A program made the translations under genes and the position numbers. Positions 14,390 to 57,000 of a stretch of 64,000 nucleotides of DNA are shown here, piece after piece (position 1 is the stretch's first letter; every line of letters begins with the position of its first letter). This stretch comes from Thainema sp. (GTDB lineage Bacteria > Cyanobacteriota > Cyanobacteriia > Phormidesmidales > Phormidesmidaceae): positions 256,001-320,000 of the forward strand of contig JBQLZK010000001.1 in NCBI GenBank assembly GCA_052168235.1. Reading direction: 5' to 3'. The notes below the pieces were generated by a model that worked only from the letters and a program-made list of their open reading frames with translations, was not told the DNA's origin and searched no databases.

Positions 14390-15696
14390 TGCTATTGAAT
14401 GCGGAGGAACTGCGATCTCGCTTTTTTCGGCTAGCCGTGGTCAACGTGCTATCAAATTTGCTGGTGCCGCTGGCCGGATTGGCGGATACGGCTTTTTTGG
14501 GGCACTTGTCCGACATTCGGCACTTAGCGGGTGTCAGCCTTGCAACGGTGCTGTTCAACTATATTTACTGGACATTTGGCTTTTTGCGAATGGGGACGAC
14601 GGGCACGACCGCGCAAGCCGTTGGTCGCCAGGATCAGCTTGCGGTCTATGCCACGCTGTTGCGGAACGGGCTGCTGGGGATTGCGATTGGTCTGGTGATT
14701 CTAGTCTTTCAGGAACCAATTCGGCAGATTGGCTTTGCCCTGCTGAGCGCCACGCCCGAGGTGGAACAGTCGGGACAGGCTTATTACCGAGCCTTGATTT
14801 GGGGTGCTCCGGCCACGCTGCTGAACTTTGTGCTGCTGGGCTGGTTTTTAGGCCGGGCGGAAGGCAGGCGAGTTTTAGTTCTGTCGATGGTGAGCAACGG
14901 CTGTAATGTTTTGCTCAACTACTGGCTGATTGTCCGGTTGGGCTGGGCTAGTGCTGGAGCAGGGGTGGCGACGGCCTGTAGTCAGTATCTGATGCTATTG
15001 ATTGGCCTGGGCTTTGTGCTCCGCGAGTTCCCGTGGTCAAAGCGGCGCTTACTCACTGCTCAGCTCTGGGATTTGAGCGTTTTGACCGATACCCTGCGGC
15101 TGAATCGCGATATTTTGATTCGCACGTTTGCCTTGCTGTCGGTCTTCGCCGCCTTCACCAATATCAGTGCGGCGATTGGCACACTGACGCTGACGGCGAA
15201 TGCGCTGCTGCTGCAAATTTTGTCCCTGGCGGCCTACTTTATTGACGGCTTTGCCTTTGCAACTGAAAGTTTAGTCGGCATTCTCAAAGGCCAAGATGAT
15301 CATCGACAAATGCGCCATCTACTGCGATTGGCGGGCGGCGTTAGCTTTGGGCTAGGAATTGCGATCGCACTTCTCTTTATGCTTTTCCCCCAGCCGCTCT
15401 TCGGTATCCTAACCAGCCATGACAATGTCATCAGCAGCGTTTCTCGCTATGTACCTTGGCTGTTGCCCCTCCTGGGTTTTGGCTCTCTAGCCTATATTCT
15501 GGACGGTTATTTTCTGGGATTAACCCAAGGCCCCATTCTGCGCCGCGCATCTATTGTGTCGGCAATTGTCGGCTTTGCACCGCTGGCAGCTCTCGCCTGG
15601 TGGCTGGAAAGTACGCCACTTTTATGGACAGCGCTAACCTGTTTTATGGCCGCTCGTGTGATCACCCTCGGTCGCAACGTAGAGTATCGCTCATAG
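14386..15696 (+). CDS. MATE (DinF-like) efflux transporter
   Basis: VPLAGLADTAFLGH, FGFLRMGTTG, AYFIDGFAFA; overlaps the TetR stop (ATGA). Confidence 0.93.
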   Translation: MMLLNAEELRSRFFRLAVVNVLSNLLVPLAGLADTAFLGHLSDIRHLAGVSLATVLFNYIYWTFGFLRMGTTGTTAQAVGRQDQLAVYATLLRNGLLGIAIGLVILVFQEPIRQIGFALLSATPEVEQSGQAYYRALIWGAPATLLNFVLLGWFLGRAEGRRVLVLSMVSNGCNVLLNYWLIVRLGWASAGAGVATACSQYLMLLIGLGFVLREFPWSKRRLLTAQLWDLSVLTDTLRLNRDILIRTFALLSVFAAFTNISAAIGTLTLTANALLLQILSLAAYFIDGFAFATESLVGILKGQDDHRQMRHLLRLAGGVSFGLGIAIALLFMLFPQPLFGILTSHDNVISSVSRYVPWLLPLLGFGSLAYILDGYFLGLTQGPILRRASIVSAIVGFAPLAALAWWLESTPLLWTALTCFMAARVITLGRNVEYRS

Positions 15697-15801
15697 TCTG
15701 ACTCAGTTGAATGTCGTTTCTGGAGTAAATATATCTTGAGGAATGATAAACAAACTCTAAACAGCCTGAGCCTGAAATTATAGGGGTGGTTATACTGAAT
15801 T

Positions 15802-15924
15802 TTTCTGCCTAATTCCCCAAATAGGAATGTTAGGCTGACGAATTTCTATCTAATCATCTAGATAAGGTGATTAGGCTGATGGATTTCTACCTAATCACCC
15901 GAATAGGTGTGTTAGGCAGAAAGT
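15802..15924 (+). repeat. Three tandem 41-bp units, each a CCTAAT...TTAGGC hairpin
   Basis: Units start at 15802, 15843 and 15884 (TTTCT(G/A)(C/T)CTAAT...TTAGGC); outer ends form the perfect inverted repeat TTTCTGCCTAA/TTAGGCAGAAA. Confidence 0.9.
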
Positions 15925-15971
15925 TTCCCTCCAATTAATAGTTAGACCTCCAATACGAGTAGGTAGACAAG

Positions 15972-17177
15972 ATGGAGGATGAAATTCTAGAAAAATCGGT
16001 TTCCCGTATAGAAAGTTCTCACAGAAACTCAGCAATTTTGCGACGAAAGTTACTGGAGAAGCATAATTATGCTTGTACTATTTGCGGGGTAAAAAATGAG
16101 GATGTTCCATTAGAGATTGCTCACTTAGTTCCATTATATAAAGGCGGAGAGACAAGTGAGGATAATCTTACACTCCTCTGTCCAAACTGTCATAGAGTAT
16201 TAGATTCTCAACCCAGAGAGATTGAGTTTGTAGATTTCCTATCAGAGCTACTGAACAATCATCCAAACTTTGAAAACGTAAAAAAAGAGGTTTTATTAGG
16301 ATCTGAAACCCGTTTCCGGGGCGACATCCTTGTAAAGAGAAAAGAAGGAAGTAGGCAACAAACTTTAGTGATAGAGTGTAAAACCTCGAGGATCTTACAC
16401 TCTGCCACCTTGAAAGATATAATTGCCCAGTTAAATACCTATCAAAACCTTTGTGATGGGTGCTGCATGGTTTTAGCTGTAGCAGGAACATTACTCGATC
16501 AAGATTTAGTGTTACTGCAACAGCACATGATTGAAGTATGGGATCTTGAGTATATAGCAGTAACCTTCGCGGCTCAAATTAAAGAATCCCCAATAAGCTA
16601 CTACAAAGCTTTACTACTTGCTCGTCTTGCACGTGCATCAAACTCATTCAAAGAGCAAAGCTTTATTAGTTTCCTGAAAACATGTCAGCCAGGAAAGAAA
16701 GATTGCTATGTATACCAAAGCCTCATAGGTGACATTTTGGAATATCTATTTACGCCTCCATTGGCAAAACCCATTCCGGAATTATCAGACAGAGTTCTAG
16801 CAAATAGACGAGATTTTATTTTGCCGAACTATGTGGAAAAGGGTTTCTGGGCATTCATGCGAGAAAAATATGCGGCAGATTATATTGTTGTGGATGCAAA
16901 AAATTACACGAGAAAGGTAAAGAAAAATGAGGTATTACAAATTGCTAATTATCTAAAGCCTCACGGAGCAGGACTTTTTGGGATCATTATTTGCAGAAAA
17001 GGAGGAGATTCGACTGGATGTGAACACACACTACGTGAACAATGGTTAGTCCACAAGAAGCTAATATTAGTATTGGATGATGGAGATATTGAGAAGATGT
17101 TAATTTCTAAATTAGATGGCAACCCTCCCGAGGATTTAATCAGCCAAAAGATTGAGCAATTCAGGTTGTCAATGTAG
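15972..17177 (+). CDS. HNH endonuclease fused to two PD-(D/E)xK restriction-endonuclease-like domains
   Basis: CTICG...HLVPLYKGG...NLTLLCPNCH (HNH); RGDILV...IECK; RRDFIL...VDAKN; visibly AT-richer than the flanks. Confidence 0.85.
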   Translation: MEDEILEKSVSRIESSHRNSAILRRKLLEKHNYACTICGVKNEDVPLEIAHLVPLYKGGETSEDNLTLLCPNCHRVLDSQPREIEFVDFLSELLNNHPNFENVKKEVLLGSETRFRGDILVKRKEGSRQQTLVIECKTSRILHSATLKDIIAQLNTYQNLCDGCCMVLAVAGTLLDQDLVLLQQHMIEVWDLEYIAVTFAAQIKESPISYYKALLLARLARASNSFKEQSFISFLKTCQPGKKDCYVYQSLIGDILEYLFTPPLAKPIPELSDRVLANRRDFILPNYVEKGFWAFMREKYAADYIVVDAKNYTRKVKKNEVLQIANYLKPHGAGLFGIIICRKGGDSTGCEHTLREQWLVHKKLILVLDDGDIEKMLISKLDGNPPEDLISQKIEQFRLSM

Positions 17178-17263
17178 TTCTAACAAGCACGTTGCAGCGG
17201 AATGAGTAAAGCTCTTGGTGCTTAGTCTATACTACTTGCATCCGCTGAACGTGATCGTTAGGC
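17178..17263 (+). other. attC recombination site (86 bp)
   Basis: TTCTAAC...GTTAGGC ends; CACGTT(G)CAGCGGA pairs with TCCGCTGAACGTG leaving one extra base. Confidence 0.88.
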
Positions 17264-17407
17264 GGCTAAATTTCCCTATTAGTAACGGCAGTCTTTTCAC
17301 GATTTGAGCATTAATCCGCATCAAGATTTCCAGCTCACGGTCGGGGGTGAAAGCGCCGCTGCAAGTGAGTGGAGCTAAAATTGAGAAGCAAGTAATTTGC
17401 AAGGATT

Positions 17408-17692
17408 ATGACGCTGAACTTAGATTTGCCACCCGAACTAGAGCAGTACCTCTTGCAAGAAGCCGAGCAGCAAGGTCTATCGGTTGAAGCAATGACCCTA
17501 CAGCTTTTGACGAACTCGCTTCAACTCAGGCAAAAACAAGCTGAAGCCATTGATATGCTTCAGTCCTGGATTGACGATGAGGACGTTGAAGAGCAACAGG
17601 AGACAGGCGAGTATTTGGTTCAGGTGCTGGACGAGGATCGGCTGTCTGACCGCAAGTTATTCCCGCTTGAAATGAAAGGGATTACATGGTAG
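17408..17692 (+). CDS. Putative antitoxin
   Basis: Small acidic protein with RHH-like N-terminus (LDLPPELEQYL), overlapping the PIN toxin gene. Confidence 0.75.
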   Translation: MTLNLDLPPELEQYLLQEAEQQGLSVEAMTLQLLTNSLQLRQKQAEAIDMLQSWIDDEDVEEQQETGEYLVQVLDEDRLSDRKLFPLEMKGITW

Positions 17693-18141
17693 AGCGTTTG
17701 ATTGTATTGGATACAGGGCCAATCGGCCTGGTTACCAATCCCAAACTCTCTTCCCAAGGTGTTGCTTGTAACCAGTGGCTTCAGTCTCATCTCAAGTTGG
17801 GGAACCGGATAATCGTTCCGGAAATTGCTGATTATGAAGTGCGTCGCGAGTTGTTGCGAGCCAATAAAAAGAAGGGTCTCACTCGGCTAGATAGCTTGTG
17901 TCAAAGACTTGAGTATTTACCGATTACAACTGCCTCAATGCGGCAAGCGGCTGAACTATGGGCACAGGCGCGACAGCAGGGACAGCCAACGGCAGGGGAT
18001 AAAACCATTGACGGTGACATGATTCTGATTGCTCAGGCTAAGACTCTGGGAGCCTCAGATGTGGTGATCGCTACAACTAACGTGGGGCATTTATCGAGGT
18101 TTATTGCAGCGGACTTATGGCAGAACATTCTTCCCAATTAA
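17686..18141 (+). CDS. PIN-domain (VapC-like) toxin
   Basis: IVLDTG, PEIADYEVRRE, DGDMILIAQA, ATTNVGH. Confidence 0.9.
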   Translation: MVERLIVLDTGPIGLVTNPKLSSQGVACNQWLQSHLKLGNRIIVPEIADYEVRRELLRANKKKGLTRLDSLCQRLEYLPITTASMRQAAELWAQARQQGQPTAGDKTIDGDMILIAQAKTLGASDVVIATTNVGHLSRFIAADLWQNILPN

Positions 18142-18146
18142 CCGCC

Positions 18147-18232
18147 ACCTAACACCTCGTTGGTGCGGACAGAACAAAGGTTATCGGTAAGAGTTCAGGT
18201 TTATCTGCCGCCGCTACACTTCACCGTTAGCT
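18147..18232 (+). other. attC recombination site (86 bp)
   Basis: ACCTAAC...GTTAGCT ends; same length and similar arms (CGTTG..GCGGA / CCGCT) as 17178-17263. Confidence 0.8.
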
Positions 18233-18301
18233 GAATTCTTTTTTGGCTTGGGACGTACAGAGAGGCTATTTGCTGGTATCTGAGGATGCTCGTTCTAGTA
18301 G

Positions 18302-18329
18302 CTCTGGTATGACTGAGGTATAACCAGAG
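18302..18329 (+). promoter_or_regulatory. Putative autoregulatory operator of the TA module
   Basis: CTCTGGT...ACCAGAG inverted repeat with GGTATGAC/GGTATAAC direct repeats just upstream of the RHH antitoxin. Confidence 0.5.
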
Positions 18330-18354
18330 AATAGAACTTTAAGTTAAGGCCACC

Positions 18355-18591
18355 ATGAAAACTGCAATTTCGCTGCCAGATTCAGTTTTTGAGCAGGCGG
18401 AAGCACTTGCTCAGCAGTTAGGAGTGTCGCGCAGTGAGCTTTACACAAAAGCGCTACAGGCATACCTAAAAAAGTACAACCGTGAGCAAATGTTGCTCAA
18501 GTTGAACCAAGTTTATGGTACAGAGTCCTCTGAACTTGATCCAGTGATGGCAAGGATGCAGTTTATGTCTTTGCCCCACGAGGATTGGTAA
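18355..18591 (+). CDS. CopG/RHH antitoxin (ChpI-like)
   Basis: MKTAISLPD...GVSRSELY RHH motif; coupled to the MazF gene. Confidence 0.88.
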   Translation: MKTAISLPDSVFEQAEALAQQLGVSRSELYTKALQAYLKKYNREQMLLKLNQVYGTESSELDPVMARMQFMSLPHEDW

Positions 18592-18929
18592 TGTATCGGG
18601 GAGAAATTTGGTGGGCTAACCTACCCGATCCAGTGGGTTCAGAACCTGGATATCGTCGTCCCGTCTTGGTGATTCAGGATGATACATTTACCCAGAGCCG
18701 GATTCGCACTGTTATCGTCGTTATCATTACTTCCAATATTCAGTTAGCGGAAGCACCAGGCAATGTACTATTACCGCGTGAGGTATCCGGTTTGTCGAGA
18801 GATTCCGTTGTAAATGTCTCTCAAATTCTCACGCTCGATAAGACGTTTTTGGTTGAGCGTATTGGTTCACTACCGGACTACTTGCAGGAGGAGATAGACG
18901 AGGGGCTACGAACAGTTTTGTATCTCTAG
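18591..18929 (+). CDS. mazF: PemK/MazF endoribonuclease toxin
   Basis: RGEIWWA..GSEPGYRRPVLVIQ, ITSN, SGLSRDSV. Confidence 0.93.
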   Translation: MYRGEIWWANLPDPVGSEPGYRRPVLVIQDDTFTQSRIRTVIVVIITSNIQLAEAPGNVLLPREVSGLSRDSVVNVSQILTLDKTFLVERIGSLPDYLQEEIDEGLRTVLYL

Positions 18930-18987
18930 CAACGCCAGCTGCCCAGCCAATGGAGCGGCGAATATTAGTTTTTTATGAGCTGAGTTG

Positions 18988-19767
18988 TTAATCATCGACT
19001 AGCAAGAAGCGGCGATTCAGTGGCTGCACTGGGCGGGCATTCAGCGGGAAAATATCGCTGAATAGGCCAATTTGAGCTGGAGACACTTCAGTCGGCGTTT
19101 GGAACATCACCCATTTCACAATCTCGGAGCAGGGTGGCGTGGTCAGCGAGCCAAAGTAGCGATAGGTACTTTGATCGGCTGGCAGAAGCTGAGCAATGTC
19201 AATATTGACGCCAGGAATCGTGTCTTCAGCGCTGGGCTGACGCGGCATGGCGTCCCAAATGGGCTTCAGAACTCGATTTTCCGCACCTTCTTTCAGAAGA
19301 ACGCCCAGCACCGCCAAGTTGCCAGCGGCATTCTTATGCACAAAATGAGCCTCCATCGGCATCGTCTCACCCTCTACCGTATGTTCGCTGGGATGGTGAA
19401 AGTGAAACTGAAGCAAGTCATACCGCTCACCGTCAATCAGAATGTAGCTGCCCGGATCGGTGTTAATTTGAATCGCGTGGCCATTGTTGACGATGCGTAG
19501 GGGAACAGACTGATAATGCACACTTACGTTAGCCATATCCACCGCAATCCCTTCATGCAAATCAATCGGAGACTGCTGCATGCCAGCACCACAGGCTTGG
19601 TACTCCGGCGATAGATCATCCCATTCGCTGGGATTGTTCTCGCCGACATAGCCCCATTCGGCTCCTTGTTCACTTGCGATCGCATCTTTTAAAGACAGGT
19701 TGGTCAGACTCACGACCGCACTCATCGCAGCCAGCTTGAACATTTGTCGCCGATTGATCCCAGTCAA
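18988..19767 (-). CDS. Alpha-class carbonic anhydrase with twin-arginine signal
   Basis: RRQMFK Tat motif, QSPID, QFHFH, EH, GSLTTPPC, NARPVQP. Confidence 0.95.
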   Translation of the reverse strand: MTGINRRQMFKLAAMSAVVSLTNLSLKDAIASEQGAEWGYVGENNPSEWDDLSPEYQACGAGMQQSPIDLHEGIAVDMANVSVHYQSVPLRIVNNGHAIQINTDPGSYILIDGERYDLLQFHFHHPSEHTVEGETMPMEAHFVHKNAAGNLAVLGVLLKEGAENRVLKPIWDAMPRQPSAEDTIPGVNIDIAQLLPADQSTYRYFGSLTTPPCSEIVKWVMFQTPTEVSPAQIGLFSDIFPLNARPVQPLNRRFLLVDD

Positions 19768-19800
19768 ATTGCTTGTCCTCTTCTATTACTGGTGGCCTAA

Positions 19801-19903
19801 TATCCAAGTCTGATTGAAAACCCATAATTTATTTTTGGTGAAATGTTTGCTCCGCAAATGTTTCACCAAAAATAAATTGGGTTCTTATATACAGACTTGA
19901 TAT
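19801..19903. repeat. Palindromic repeat family B (~100 bp)
   Basis: CAAGTCTG...AATTTATTTTTGGTGAAA-TTGCTCCGCAA-TTTCACCAAAAATAAATT...CAGACTTG; similar copy at 23.8 kb. Confidence 0.8.
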
Positions 19904-19978
19904 AAGACGTGCCCCCAGTATATTTTTCCGATTCGGACGCTCCCGTTCACGTAATGAAATGATCCAAATCGATTTTTA

Positions 19979-20067
19979 TAGCTGTAGTCAGCGCTGTTAG
20001 AGCACGGACGTTTTGTGGCGCGGCTGCGCCGCACCACAAAACGTCCTGACCAATACGACTATGGCTA
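19979..20067 (+). repeat. Palindromic repeat family A (~90 bp)
   Basis: TAGCTGTAGTC...GGACGTTTTGTGG..CCACAAAACGTCC...GACTATGGCTA. Confidence 0.82.
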
Positions 20068-20177
20068 TATTTGACGGTAATCCGCCTATCGGTATCTCGA
20101 CAGAGTCAAGGGTAAGGCACGCATAATATAATAGAAAGCAAGAATATTAAATTTTGTAAACAGAATCTCATTAAATT

Positions 20178-20858
20178 ATGAGTCAGGTAGACCTCGACTA
20201 TATTGCCACCCAACTGGAAAGCGACCAGTCCCGCGATCGCATGATTGCGCTGGCCCAACTGCGCGATGTACCTGCGGTTGATGCCGTACCGCTGATCAAA
20301 AAAGTGTTGGAAGATGACAACTTGCAAATTCGCTCAATGGCGGTATTTGCGCTGGGTATCAAGCAGACAGATGACTGCTATCCCATTCTGATTAGGCTGC
20401 TGGAGAACGACCCCGACTACGGCATTCGGGCCGATGCGGCGGGCGCGTTAGGTTACTTAGAAGATCCACGGGCGCTGGAGCCACTGATGCGAGCCTTTTA
20501 CGAAGACACCGACTGGTTGGTGCGATTCAGTGCTGCTGTGTCGCTGGGTAATCTAAAAGACCAGCGGGCGCGGGATGCCCTGGTGCAGGCGTTGGATAGT
20601 AAAGAAGTGGTGCTGCAACAAGCTGCGATCGCAGCTTTGGGTGAAATCAAAGATGTGACCGCCGTTGATGAAGTGCTGCGCTTTGCTCAGTCCGATGACT
20701 GGCTGGTGCGGCAGCGGTTAGCGGAAGCACTGGGACATTTACCGACTAAAAAGAGCCGTTCGGCGCTCAAGTTCCTCTCAAAAGATGCTCATCCCCAGGT
20801 AGCAGAAGCCGCTCGCATTTCTATTGAACGTCTAGATGCATTAACAATTGACGAATAG
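20178..20858 (+). CDS. nblB: HEAT-repeat phycobilisome degradation protein
   Basis: PBS-lyase HEAT repeats; DPDYGIRADAAGALGYLED and FYEDTDWLVRFSAA. Confidence 0.85.
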   Translation: MSQVDLDYIATQLESDQSRDRMIALAQLRDVPAVDAVPLIKKVLEDDNLQIRSMAVFALGIKQTDDCYPILIRLLENDPDYGIRADAAGALGYLEDPRALEPLMRAFYEDTDWLVRFSAAVSLGNLKDQRARDALVQALDSKEVVLQQAAIAALGEIKDVTAVDEVLRFAQSDDWLVRQRLAEALGHLPTKKSRSALKFLSKDAHPQVAEAARISIERLDALTIDE

Positions 20859-23804: not shown

Positions 23805-23904
23805 ATCAAGTCTGGTTAAAAATCATCATTTATTTATTGTGAAACAGTTGCTCCGCAACCGTTTCACAATAAATAAATTGGGTTCTTATACGCAGACTTG
23901 GTAT
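23805..23904. repeat. Palindromic repeat family B copy
   Basis: CAAGTCTG...ATTTATTTATTGTGAAAC-GTTGCTCCGCAAC-GTTTCACAATAAATAAAT-TGGGTTCTTATA..CAGACTTG. Confidence 0.8.
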
Positions 23905-25469: not shown

Positions 25470-25569
25470 TACAAAATCCGGCTAAAATCCGACGATTTGT
25501 TTTTATGAAAAGCTGGCTTAGCCGACCTTTCATAAAAAACAAATTGGGTTTTATAAACAGGCTGGATAT
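25470..25569. repeat. Diverged palindromic repeat, family B-like
   Basis: ATTTGTTTTTATGAAA...TTTCATAAAAAACAAATTGGGTTTTATA..CAGGCTGGATA. Confidence 0.55.
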
Positions 25570-40350: not shown

Positions 40351-40440
40351 TAGCTGTAATCAGCTCAGTTAGGACACGGACGTTTTGTGGCGCGGCGACG
40401 CCGCGCCACAAAACGTCCTAACCAAATATGGCTATCGCTG
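40351..40440 (+). repeat. Palindromic repeat family A copy
   Basis: TAGCTGTAATC...GGACGTTTTGTGGCGCGGCG-A-CGCCGCGCCACAAAACGTCC...GGCTATCGCTG. Confidence 0.82.
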
Positions 40441-53833: not shown

Positions 53834-53938
53834 CTCTAACGTCCAGGATGAGATGCAGGCGAAAGCGATGCGGCCTTTCCCCTTCCTCTTGCAAAAGGCG
53901 TGTCGCTTTTGACTGTCAGTTCCATCCATTGGTTAGGC
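53834..53938 (-). other. attC recombination site (105 bp)
   Basis: Minus strand GCCTAACCAATGGATGGAACTGAC...GCATCTCATCCTGGACGTTAGAG, imperfect long hairpin. Confidence 0.85.
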
Positions 53939-56103: not shown

Positions 56104-57000
56104 TTAGTCCCATCGATGTTGTCGAGCTTCATAGACAATCTCTTGAGCCTCTTCGAGTGAAATATCATAGCGGGCGCTCAAAAGATAAGGAATGCGATCG
56201 CAGTCGCGATTCGGATCCACATCTGGTTTGCTGGAATAAGCAGGCAGGGCAACATTGCATAAAAAAGGCGCAGCTTTCGCCTCTAGTTGAAGCGGTTCAA
56301 GATTTTGAGCGTCTCGCGAATTTGTAAAAAATAGCAAGGCACCGCTGAGGTTAGCATTGCTCAAGTTGGCATCAGTGAGCAGGGTACAGTTGAGGTCAGT
56401 CCCGCTGAGGTTGGCATATCGAAGATCGGCCCTACTGAGATTGGTATATCTGAGGTTAGCCCCGCTGAGGTTGGCATATCGAAGATCAGCCCTGCTGAGG
56501 TTAGCCCCGCTGAGGTTGGCACTGATGAGGTTGGCTCCGCTAAGATTGGCCCCGTTAAGGTTGGCTCCGTTAAGCCCAGCATAGTTAAGGTCAGCCCCGC
56601 TCAAGTCGACACCGCTGAGATTGGCATCACTCAGATTAGCCTCGTTAAGCTCAGCATTGTTAAGATTAGCCCCACTCAAATCAGCCCCGCTGAGATCGAC
56701 GCCGCTCAGGTTAGCTGTCTCTGGATGTCTGTTGGTCGTGCGGGAATTGAGCACTAGGAAGATGCCACCAGCAACTATCGTGATTGCCCCAATCCCGCCG
56801 ATGAGAGTTTCACGATCTGAATGAGCAAGAGCTGCTGTTTCGTTGTCGGGTAGGTGACTATAATCCGGCTGGAGTCTCCGATTGGGAAGTAACCCAAGCC
56901 ACCACACCATCCCAAGAAAGGCTGGAGTTGCGATCGCTCCCATCACCCACCACTTGTTAATCCTGATCTTTGGCTGCCACTGCTTAAATTGCTCCCGCAT
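56104..57000 (-). CDS. Membrane-anchored pentapeptide repeat protein
   Basis: Two TM segments followed by long ANLSG/ADLRY repeats. Confidence 0.9.

Follow-up and report, generated by a model that had tools for sequence, protein, structure and literature searches.

A probable attI of variant architecture, orphaned from its integrase gene and built on phased inverted arms, in the cyanobacterium Thainema sp.

The attI1 site combines a simple site, whose 7-bp spacer ends in G|TT, with two extra integrase-type boxes upstream, DR1 and DR2, both of them direct and contained within 65 bp. As far as the accessible portions of the sources go, the core L arm of attI1 is bound by IntI, and DR1 and DR2 are reported to favour attI x attC recombination, having been proposed as enhancers or topological filters (PMC8946536, PMC4792948, PMC3146285). 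Accessory boxes are described in the accessible text only as DR1 and DR2 of attI1, most other attI sites being without them (PMC3146285, PMC8946536, PMC4792948, PMC3053210, PMC9892861). The accessible parts of two of the papers state that attI is unknown for most integrons and not searchable (PMC4889954), and that the recognition of attI by IntI remains unclear (PMC4792948). Other excerpts cover CALINs, the decay of intI, mobilisation in trans and integrons in cyanobacteria (PMC4889954, PMC2426708), give attC a length of 57–141 bp (PMC3053210), and describe attG sites, which are isolated genomic hotspots with a GWT crossover, and at which the motif CRGM at +6 to +9 from the cut matters for IntI1 acting on double-stranded targets (bioRxiv 10.1101/2022.09.11.507474). 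A search of the openly accessible literature text found neither phased inverted arms nor a cyanobacterial attI described.

The window analysed here is a 64,000-nt stretch of the Thainema sp. genome (assembly GCA_052168235.1, contig JBQLZK010000001.1), to which all plain coordinates refer. Between a MATE gene ending at 15696 and three gene cassettes lies an element, hereafter the platform, which spans 15790–15947 and is very probably an attI of variant architecture, orphaned at this locus. It contains three units, starting at 15802, 15843 and 15884 with a period of exactly 41 bp, just where the original prediction had placed them. The units are not identical (pairwise identities 27/41, 30/41 and 27/41, or 66–73%), and TRF describes them as 2.8 copies of period 41 with 72% matches and a score of 121. 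Each comprises an 11-bp arm, 17 bp, an inverted 11-bp arm and then 2 bp, so that the predicted dyad is present but longer than the ~29 bp originally given. An arm scan, with TTTCCACCTAA as the arm consensus, resolved dyad 1 (15802–15840; L1 15802–15812, R1 15830–15840), dyad 2 (15843–15881; L2 15843–15853, R2 15871–15881) and dyad 3 (15884–15922; L3 15884–15894, R3 15912–15922), each with a 17-bp spacer. The same scan placed an outermost arm, R0 (TTATACTGAAT), at 15790–15800 on the forward strand. The TATACT noted earlier as lying upstream of the repeats is indeed at 15791–15796 and is a possible Pc −10; it is not separate from the array, since it falls inside R0, and the element therefore begins at 15790. 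GCGATCGC is abundant in the DNA examined, which, together with the names of the nearest intI relatives, indicates a cyanobacterium, most probably a Leptolyngbya-like one.

After the units comes CCCTCCAATTAATAGTTAGAC, as had been noted, and with it the simple site (15924–15947, forward strand), formed by an L arm at 15924–15934, the 7-bp spacer TTAATAG and the R box GTTAGAC. A single base pair separates R3 from this L arm, which brings the arms of the element to eight: R0, the three dyads and the simple-site L arm. They alternate R-L-R-L with gaps of 17 bp and 1–2 bp, and their inner triplets are spaced 20, 20, 21, 20, 21, 20 and 20 bp apart, followed by 10 bp across the core. As these distances correspond to about two helical turns each, and one across the core, the arms would lie on one face of the helix. 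The simple site, the 7-bp spacer ending in G|TT and the presence of extra integrase-type boxes upstream are all shared with attI1, as is the placement of the nearest extra box, which has the same direction as L and lies just upstream of it (about 3 bp away in the attI1 locus L141, by eye; 1 bp here), R3 occupying the position of DR1. The platform differs in having, in place of two direct boxes, seven extra alternating arms, arranged as inverted pairs spaced by 17 bp, with a 41-bp period over ~150 bp. R3 also matches both elements of the attG hotspot motif, GWT and CRGM (here CAGA), which at this locus is multiplied in a phased array beside a simple site rather than isolated, although most arm copies are without the G at −1.

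The crossover is placed at G15941|T15942, the R box GTTAGAC belonging to the first cassette, and this position is confirmed by natural variation, in that homologous and paralogous platforms diverge directly past GTT. Public sequencing runs gave a contig in which the platform is kept to 15945 and followed by other DNA (X1), and contigs in which the HNH cassette is preceded by other DNA before 15938 or 15960 and followed by other DNA after 17247 or 17260 (X2, X6). Among the contigs of four public runs, none of which spanned the whole stretch, no joints were found, nor any sign of the variation in unit number that the original prediction had suggested looking for in reads.

Three cassettes follow on the forward strand. 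Cassette 1 (15942–17257) carries an HNH-domain nuclease-like ORF of 401 aa (15972–17177; Pfam HNH, E 3e-11), in which the HNH domain is N-terminal and the C-terminal part gives weak PADLOC matches (PDC-M36A, E 2.6e-12), making its product a candidate defence nuclease; a homologue of the C-terminal part, 33% identical, is found in a cassette at C80 of the same genome (G000). Cassette 2 (17258–18226) encodes an antitoxin-like ORF (17408–17692) and a PIN-domain ORF (17686–18141, Pfam), and cassette 3 (18227–18933) an RHH antitoxin (18355–18591) with a PemK/MazF-family ORF (18585–18929), identified by domain search; the latter cassette also occurs in the integron loci L067 and L086. A covariance model of attC, built from 18 sites of related loci, recovered an 86-bp attC for cassette 1 (17178–17263; 67.6 bits with model R1, bottom strand; fold z −4.2) and a partly degenerate one for cassette 2 (18147–18232; 46.4 bits), both following the platform in matching orientation, with no intact attC past cassette 3 (no model match near 18930–19030). 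Genome-wide, the model accepted 19 sites among 150 scored of 1408 candidates. Elsewhere in the window there is a weak match at 53834–53938 (17.4 bits, E 0.24), in the orientation opposite to the main array. The platforms at C41 and C80 of the genome have nearly the same first cassette, which is ~180 bp in length and lacks a long ORF; its attC is identical in the two.

The window also holds repeats of other kinds. One palindromic dispersed family is represented at 19817–19903, 23818–23904 and 25500–25550, with 184 blastn matches of at least 50 nt in the genome, and a second at 19979–20053 and 40351–40425, with 31 such matches. Repeats of 15-nt period at 56345–56719 are probably coding.

No match to intI was found in the window and no full-length intI in the assembly, so that the adjacent intI of a complete integron is lacking; full-length copies were equally absent from the congener G001, both genomes being drafts of ~200 contigs. 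What remains, at 15723–15789, is a remnant of the intI/attI intergenic region, recognised by alignment to C41 of the same genome. The region 15723–15944 aligns at 85% with the C41 sequence that runs from a divergent intI 5′ fragment to the arms, the similarity ending where the intI start codon would be, and G001 has the same intI-less junction. With two attC sites and no intI nearby, the locus fits the definition of a CALIN, or decayed chromosomal integron. It differs in that the attI and its accessory array are kept and recognisable, and in that ten platforms occur in one genome, all orphan or linked to pseudogenes: five with three units, two with two and three with one. The C41 platform abuts a divergent intI 5′ fragment (TIGR02249 positions 1–62; SAM-like domain), that of C71 a frameshifted 5′ fragment, and those of C80 and C36 a start codon and a few codons. 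The C41 fragment (L001:1393–1716) and its counterpart in the congener (L030, G001:C87) are 97% identical and cut at the same point (~codon 72); a retained DNA-binding fragment or a recent shared deletion could explain this truncated intI. MATE homologues in 18 genomes from outside the genus have neither a platform nor intI within 1.5 kb, and an ancestral intI-bearing form of the locus was accordingly not found.

The link to cyanobacterial integrases was drawn from relatives of the intI 5′ fragment, the best 80 of 444 being retrieved. After exclusion of rows labelled Chloroflexi or Dadabacteria, of regions below 250 bp and of the duplicate L061, which is the same locus as L030 and does not count as independent, 66 intI-adjacent regions remained. 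Of these 66 cyanobacterial loci from the best 80 of 444, 61 have at least one dyad in the interval from the divergent intI to the first cassette (none in 198 shuffles), 42 at least two and 28 at least three, with five loci having no dyad. Dyads were also present in two of seven Chloroflexi/Dadabacteria rows and in 19 of 58 metagenomic rows, the other 39 having none by this profile; with the same profile attI1 (L141) and attI3 (L142) gave 0 dyads. In a quick IntI tree all rows with at least three dyads fall in one 46-row clade (SH-aLRT 97) that contains every named cyanobacterium, with neighbouring rows having 0–2 dyads. Platforms stand beside a full-length intI at L033, L057, L245 and L339. 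A platform model matched 32 of 41 genomes in the set of relatives and 22 of 24 in the family, figures that are partly circular through shared training sites, and 3 of 101 genomes in the phylum of an Anaerolineae genome, the model being trained mostly on cyanobacteria. Visual inspection removed 14 of 75 platform matches as false cores, and the counts made afterwards do not include them. A strict pattern, searched phylum-wide, found 27 sites in 15 of 401 genomes against 3 control matches. It misses the window's own site and is thus no estimate of prevalence; four of its sites are false cores inside genuine arrays, and two (L242, L250) look like chance. The 24 pattern matches in viral contigs had neither an arm array nor an integron integrase next to them, and were treated as chance.

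These comparisons bear out the original suggestion of an attI-like platform, with a divergent intI and the first cassette flanking a homologous element that has a G|TT simple site, and the association with attC arrays and a tyrosine recombinase that was to be looked for is present. The further suggestion of a new system is not sustained: because the enzyme and the pathway are known, this is a variant, with a layout that recurs in many integrons of cyanobacteria and departs from the textbook site with its two direct repeats. Several related loci show rearrangements or additional features. At L067 the intI 5′ end is joined directly to an RHH–PemK cassette and the platform is gone; at L077 unrelated transposase-like DNA starts directly past the first arm; and at L335 and L350 (G039) two platforms are broken by the same inserted sequence, which begins within the arm region. 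Palindromes containing GTAC lie near the intI start at L139, L143, L078 and L081 and resemble the cyanobacterial LexA box; none was seen in the platform type of the window.

Across 90 homologous regions, 535 arm matches were counted, compared with 20–39 in five shuffles, which excludes a chance origin of the arms. Head-to-head gaps are mostly 17 bp (83 cases; 18 bp in 21 and 16 bp in 11), with the same peak at 17 when counted without the profile (39 vs 0.7 in shuffles), and tail-to-tail gaps are 1 bp (124 cases) or 2 bp (60). The number of dyads ranges from 1 to 5 per platform which, together with the five intI loci that have none, indicates that three units are not required. What is conserved across units is the arm sequence, the spacing and one C/G pair of spacer positions, symmetrically placed.

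The arms are probably accessory sites for IntI, on a platform served in trans, a reading drawn from sequence comparison. The core L arm scores 7.68 of 11 against the arms of its own platform and 7.16 against arms of other platforms (n=53; 0/5000 permutations), a likeness that can also come from shared descent or gene conversion. CRGM is present at +6 to +9 in 113 of 282 arms and G at −1 of the crossover triplet in only 61 of 282, so that most arms look fit for binding and not for cutting.

A competing account accepts the simple site as an attI and takes the dyads to be mainly operators of Pc or PintI, bound by IntI, by its truncated N-terminal domain, by a host regulator or by a Xer-type recombinase, with no help to recombination. 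This is unlikely, though several observations speak for it: nearly all listed platforms of the window's type have TATACT or a one-base variant in the first arm; the symmetric spacer C and G could be contacts of a second protein; the 72-aa intI 5′ fragment, with most of the SAM-like domain, has the same cut in two species; and an L arm has a TTGACA/TTGACT hexamer immediately next to it in G161 and G031. The array, however, is phased to the simple site, through the 1–2-bp gap, rather than to a promoter at a set position; in several metagenomic loci, by eye, TTGACA..TATAAT-like promoters are far upstream of the arms; and the arms carry the IntI target motif, one of them having served as a cassette junction. 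Scans at the window's locus found no sigma-70 site with 9/12 matches, no two-hexamer match and no terminator. The hexamer directly abuts the last L arm at L249, L254, L258, L261 and L262 (G161) and at L339 (G031), and the cassette promoter may therefore overlap the arms in those lineages. At these five platforms of G161, no intI lies within 1.5 kb.

It is also conceivable, if improbable, that the platform is a dead relic, kept as a promoter for toxin–antitoxin and nuclease cassettes, with paralogues homogenised by gene conversion. That no full intI was found in this genome or in G001 would agree with this, as would the two toxin–antitoxin cassettes, which would resist loss, and the likeness of units, which is as great within one platform (26.5–27.9 of 39) as between same-position units of other platforms (25.8–28.2). 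The cassettes argue otherwise. G001 has the same MATE–platform–carbonic anhydrase locus and the same deletion junction, and shares the distal RHH–PemK cassette, but its first cassette, joined at the same GTT, is a methyltransferase that replaces the HNH and PIN cassettes, so the precise differences at GTT are younger than the shared loss of intI. The two arm arrays differ at 13 of about 152 sites (manual count from the alignment), the fourfold-degenerate sites of four flanking genes at 106 of 425. In G001 the last arm is followed by a 5-bp duplication ahead of the core, which would put the phasing out by half a turn. The differing arrays could also reflect differential excision of an older, longer array and not new insertions.

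Further evidence against a relic comes from closed genomes. G031 has one intI match and six platforms, with six different sequences past GTT and an attC within 3 kb downstream at five of the six; four of its orphan platforms are about 99% identical in the arm array to the copy linked to intI, and have different first cassettes. G039 likewise combines a single intI match with about ten clusters of platforms. Platforms without intI that carry different cassettes at the same crossover favour the part of the original prediction that had the array driven by an integrase in trans, and the window's platform is, on these comparisons, likely still loaded in this way. In the four G031 orphan platforms (L363–L366), moreover, the leading end is foreign DNA, which meets the outermost arm precisely at its bottom-strand G|TT. 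At L364 (8654–10209; G031:C1, about 778.6–780.2 kb) this DNA consists of a run of cassettes in reverse orientation, followed by an attC (31.7 bits), giving back-to-back arrays. The insertion at the arm is one event copied several times, and as GWT secondary sites are common, it is only suggestive. IS1-like elements, labelled from their ORFs, adjoin the G031 copies and probably spread them.

A highly improbable reading takes the units as 5′ leader hairpins of the cassette transcript that regulate expression as RNA, the structured leader of the original prediction. Each unit does form a more stable fold than shuffled versions of itself (z −2.3 to −5.3), half-swapped units are about 1 kcal/mol less stable than real ones, and the hairpins would sit just downstream of TATACT. 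The inner sequence had been said to vary while still able to pair, yet among the 420 spacer cells of 70 dereplicated 17-bp units Watson–Crick pairs number 189, compared with 190.3 when halves are exchanged between units. Four shifted registers bring no improvement, and wobble pairs favour neither strand, G-U pairs on the top strand showing no excess. The arms do pair above expectation (571 vs 531). Arm likeness, however, is almost as great with another unit of the same platform (8.03 of 11) as within a unit (8.15), compared with 7.74 for other platforms, so that the pairing excess is mostly a platform-wide sequence preference, which mostly explains the energy excess as well. Rfam gave no match over 15802–15947 (E up to 1), and over 15000–20500 only three miRNA-model matches near 19804–19901, far below gathering scores.

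Scarcely credible is the idea of miniature attC-like hairpins, or empty mini-cassettes stacked by the integrase at the head of the array: although the arm ends resemble attC R boxes in weak model alignments and unit number varies from 1 to 5, the dyads have 39 bp and no L boxes in place of the R′′/L′′/L′/R′ boxes and greater length of attC (PMC3053210, accessible part), score no higher than 10 bits (E 0.4 or more) on the attC model against 46–68 bits for real attCs, lie upstream of the crossover, mostly lack the G of GTT, have terminal units that are position-specific across genera, and among 20 matches in the genome (16 in platforms, 4 weak in unrelated sequence) are never found inside an array.

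On the preferred reading of the arms as accessory integrase sites, the three repeats, which are inverted pairs of 11-bp arms, are likely to bind extra IntI monomers as double-stranded DNA. The 17-bp gap may be understood as the 7-bp core spacer plus one helical turn, with which monomers could occupy the arms in phase while a normal cleaving pair would not form. In that case the arms would play the part of DR1 and DR2 of attI1, keeping integrase close to the core and promoting attI x attC insertion. Since the outermost arm overlaps TATACT, integrase bound there could, more speculatively, damp the cassette or integrase promoter. In the res sites of the Tn3 family, similarly, subsites for the same recombinase that are not cleaved lie next to the crossover site and in helical phase with it; the enzyme family is different, and the parallel is one of analogy only.

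A broader picture can be put forward tentatively. Cyanobacterial integrons may use a distinct attI, on which up to about ten integrase monomers would gather on phased inverted arms as a higher-order intasome. Such a platform would be self-sufficient and, through decay of intI and spread by IS1, kept in many intI-less copies, with one resident or transient integrase making of them a genome-wide distributed integron, and with arms that themselves accept cassettes, giving rise to back-to-back arrays.

The regular, multi-copy array of arms provides a ready consensus for what is likely double-strand recognition by this clade of IntI, and the proposal that accessory sites act as enhancers or topological filters can be tested by adding, deleting or dephasing units. 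The platform is also a searchable attI signature, by which many cyanobacterial 'CALINs' are seen to keep their docking site, and these may still exchange defence and toxin–antitoxin cassettes.
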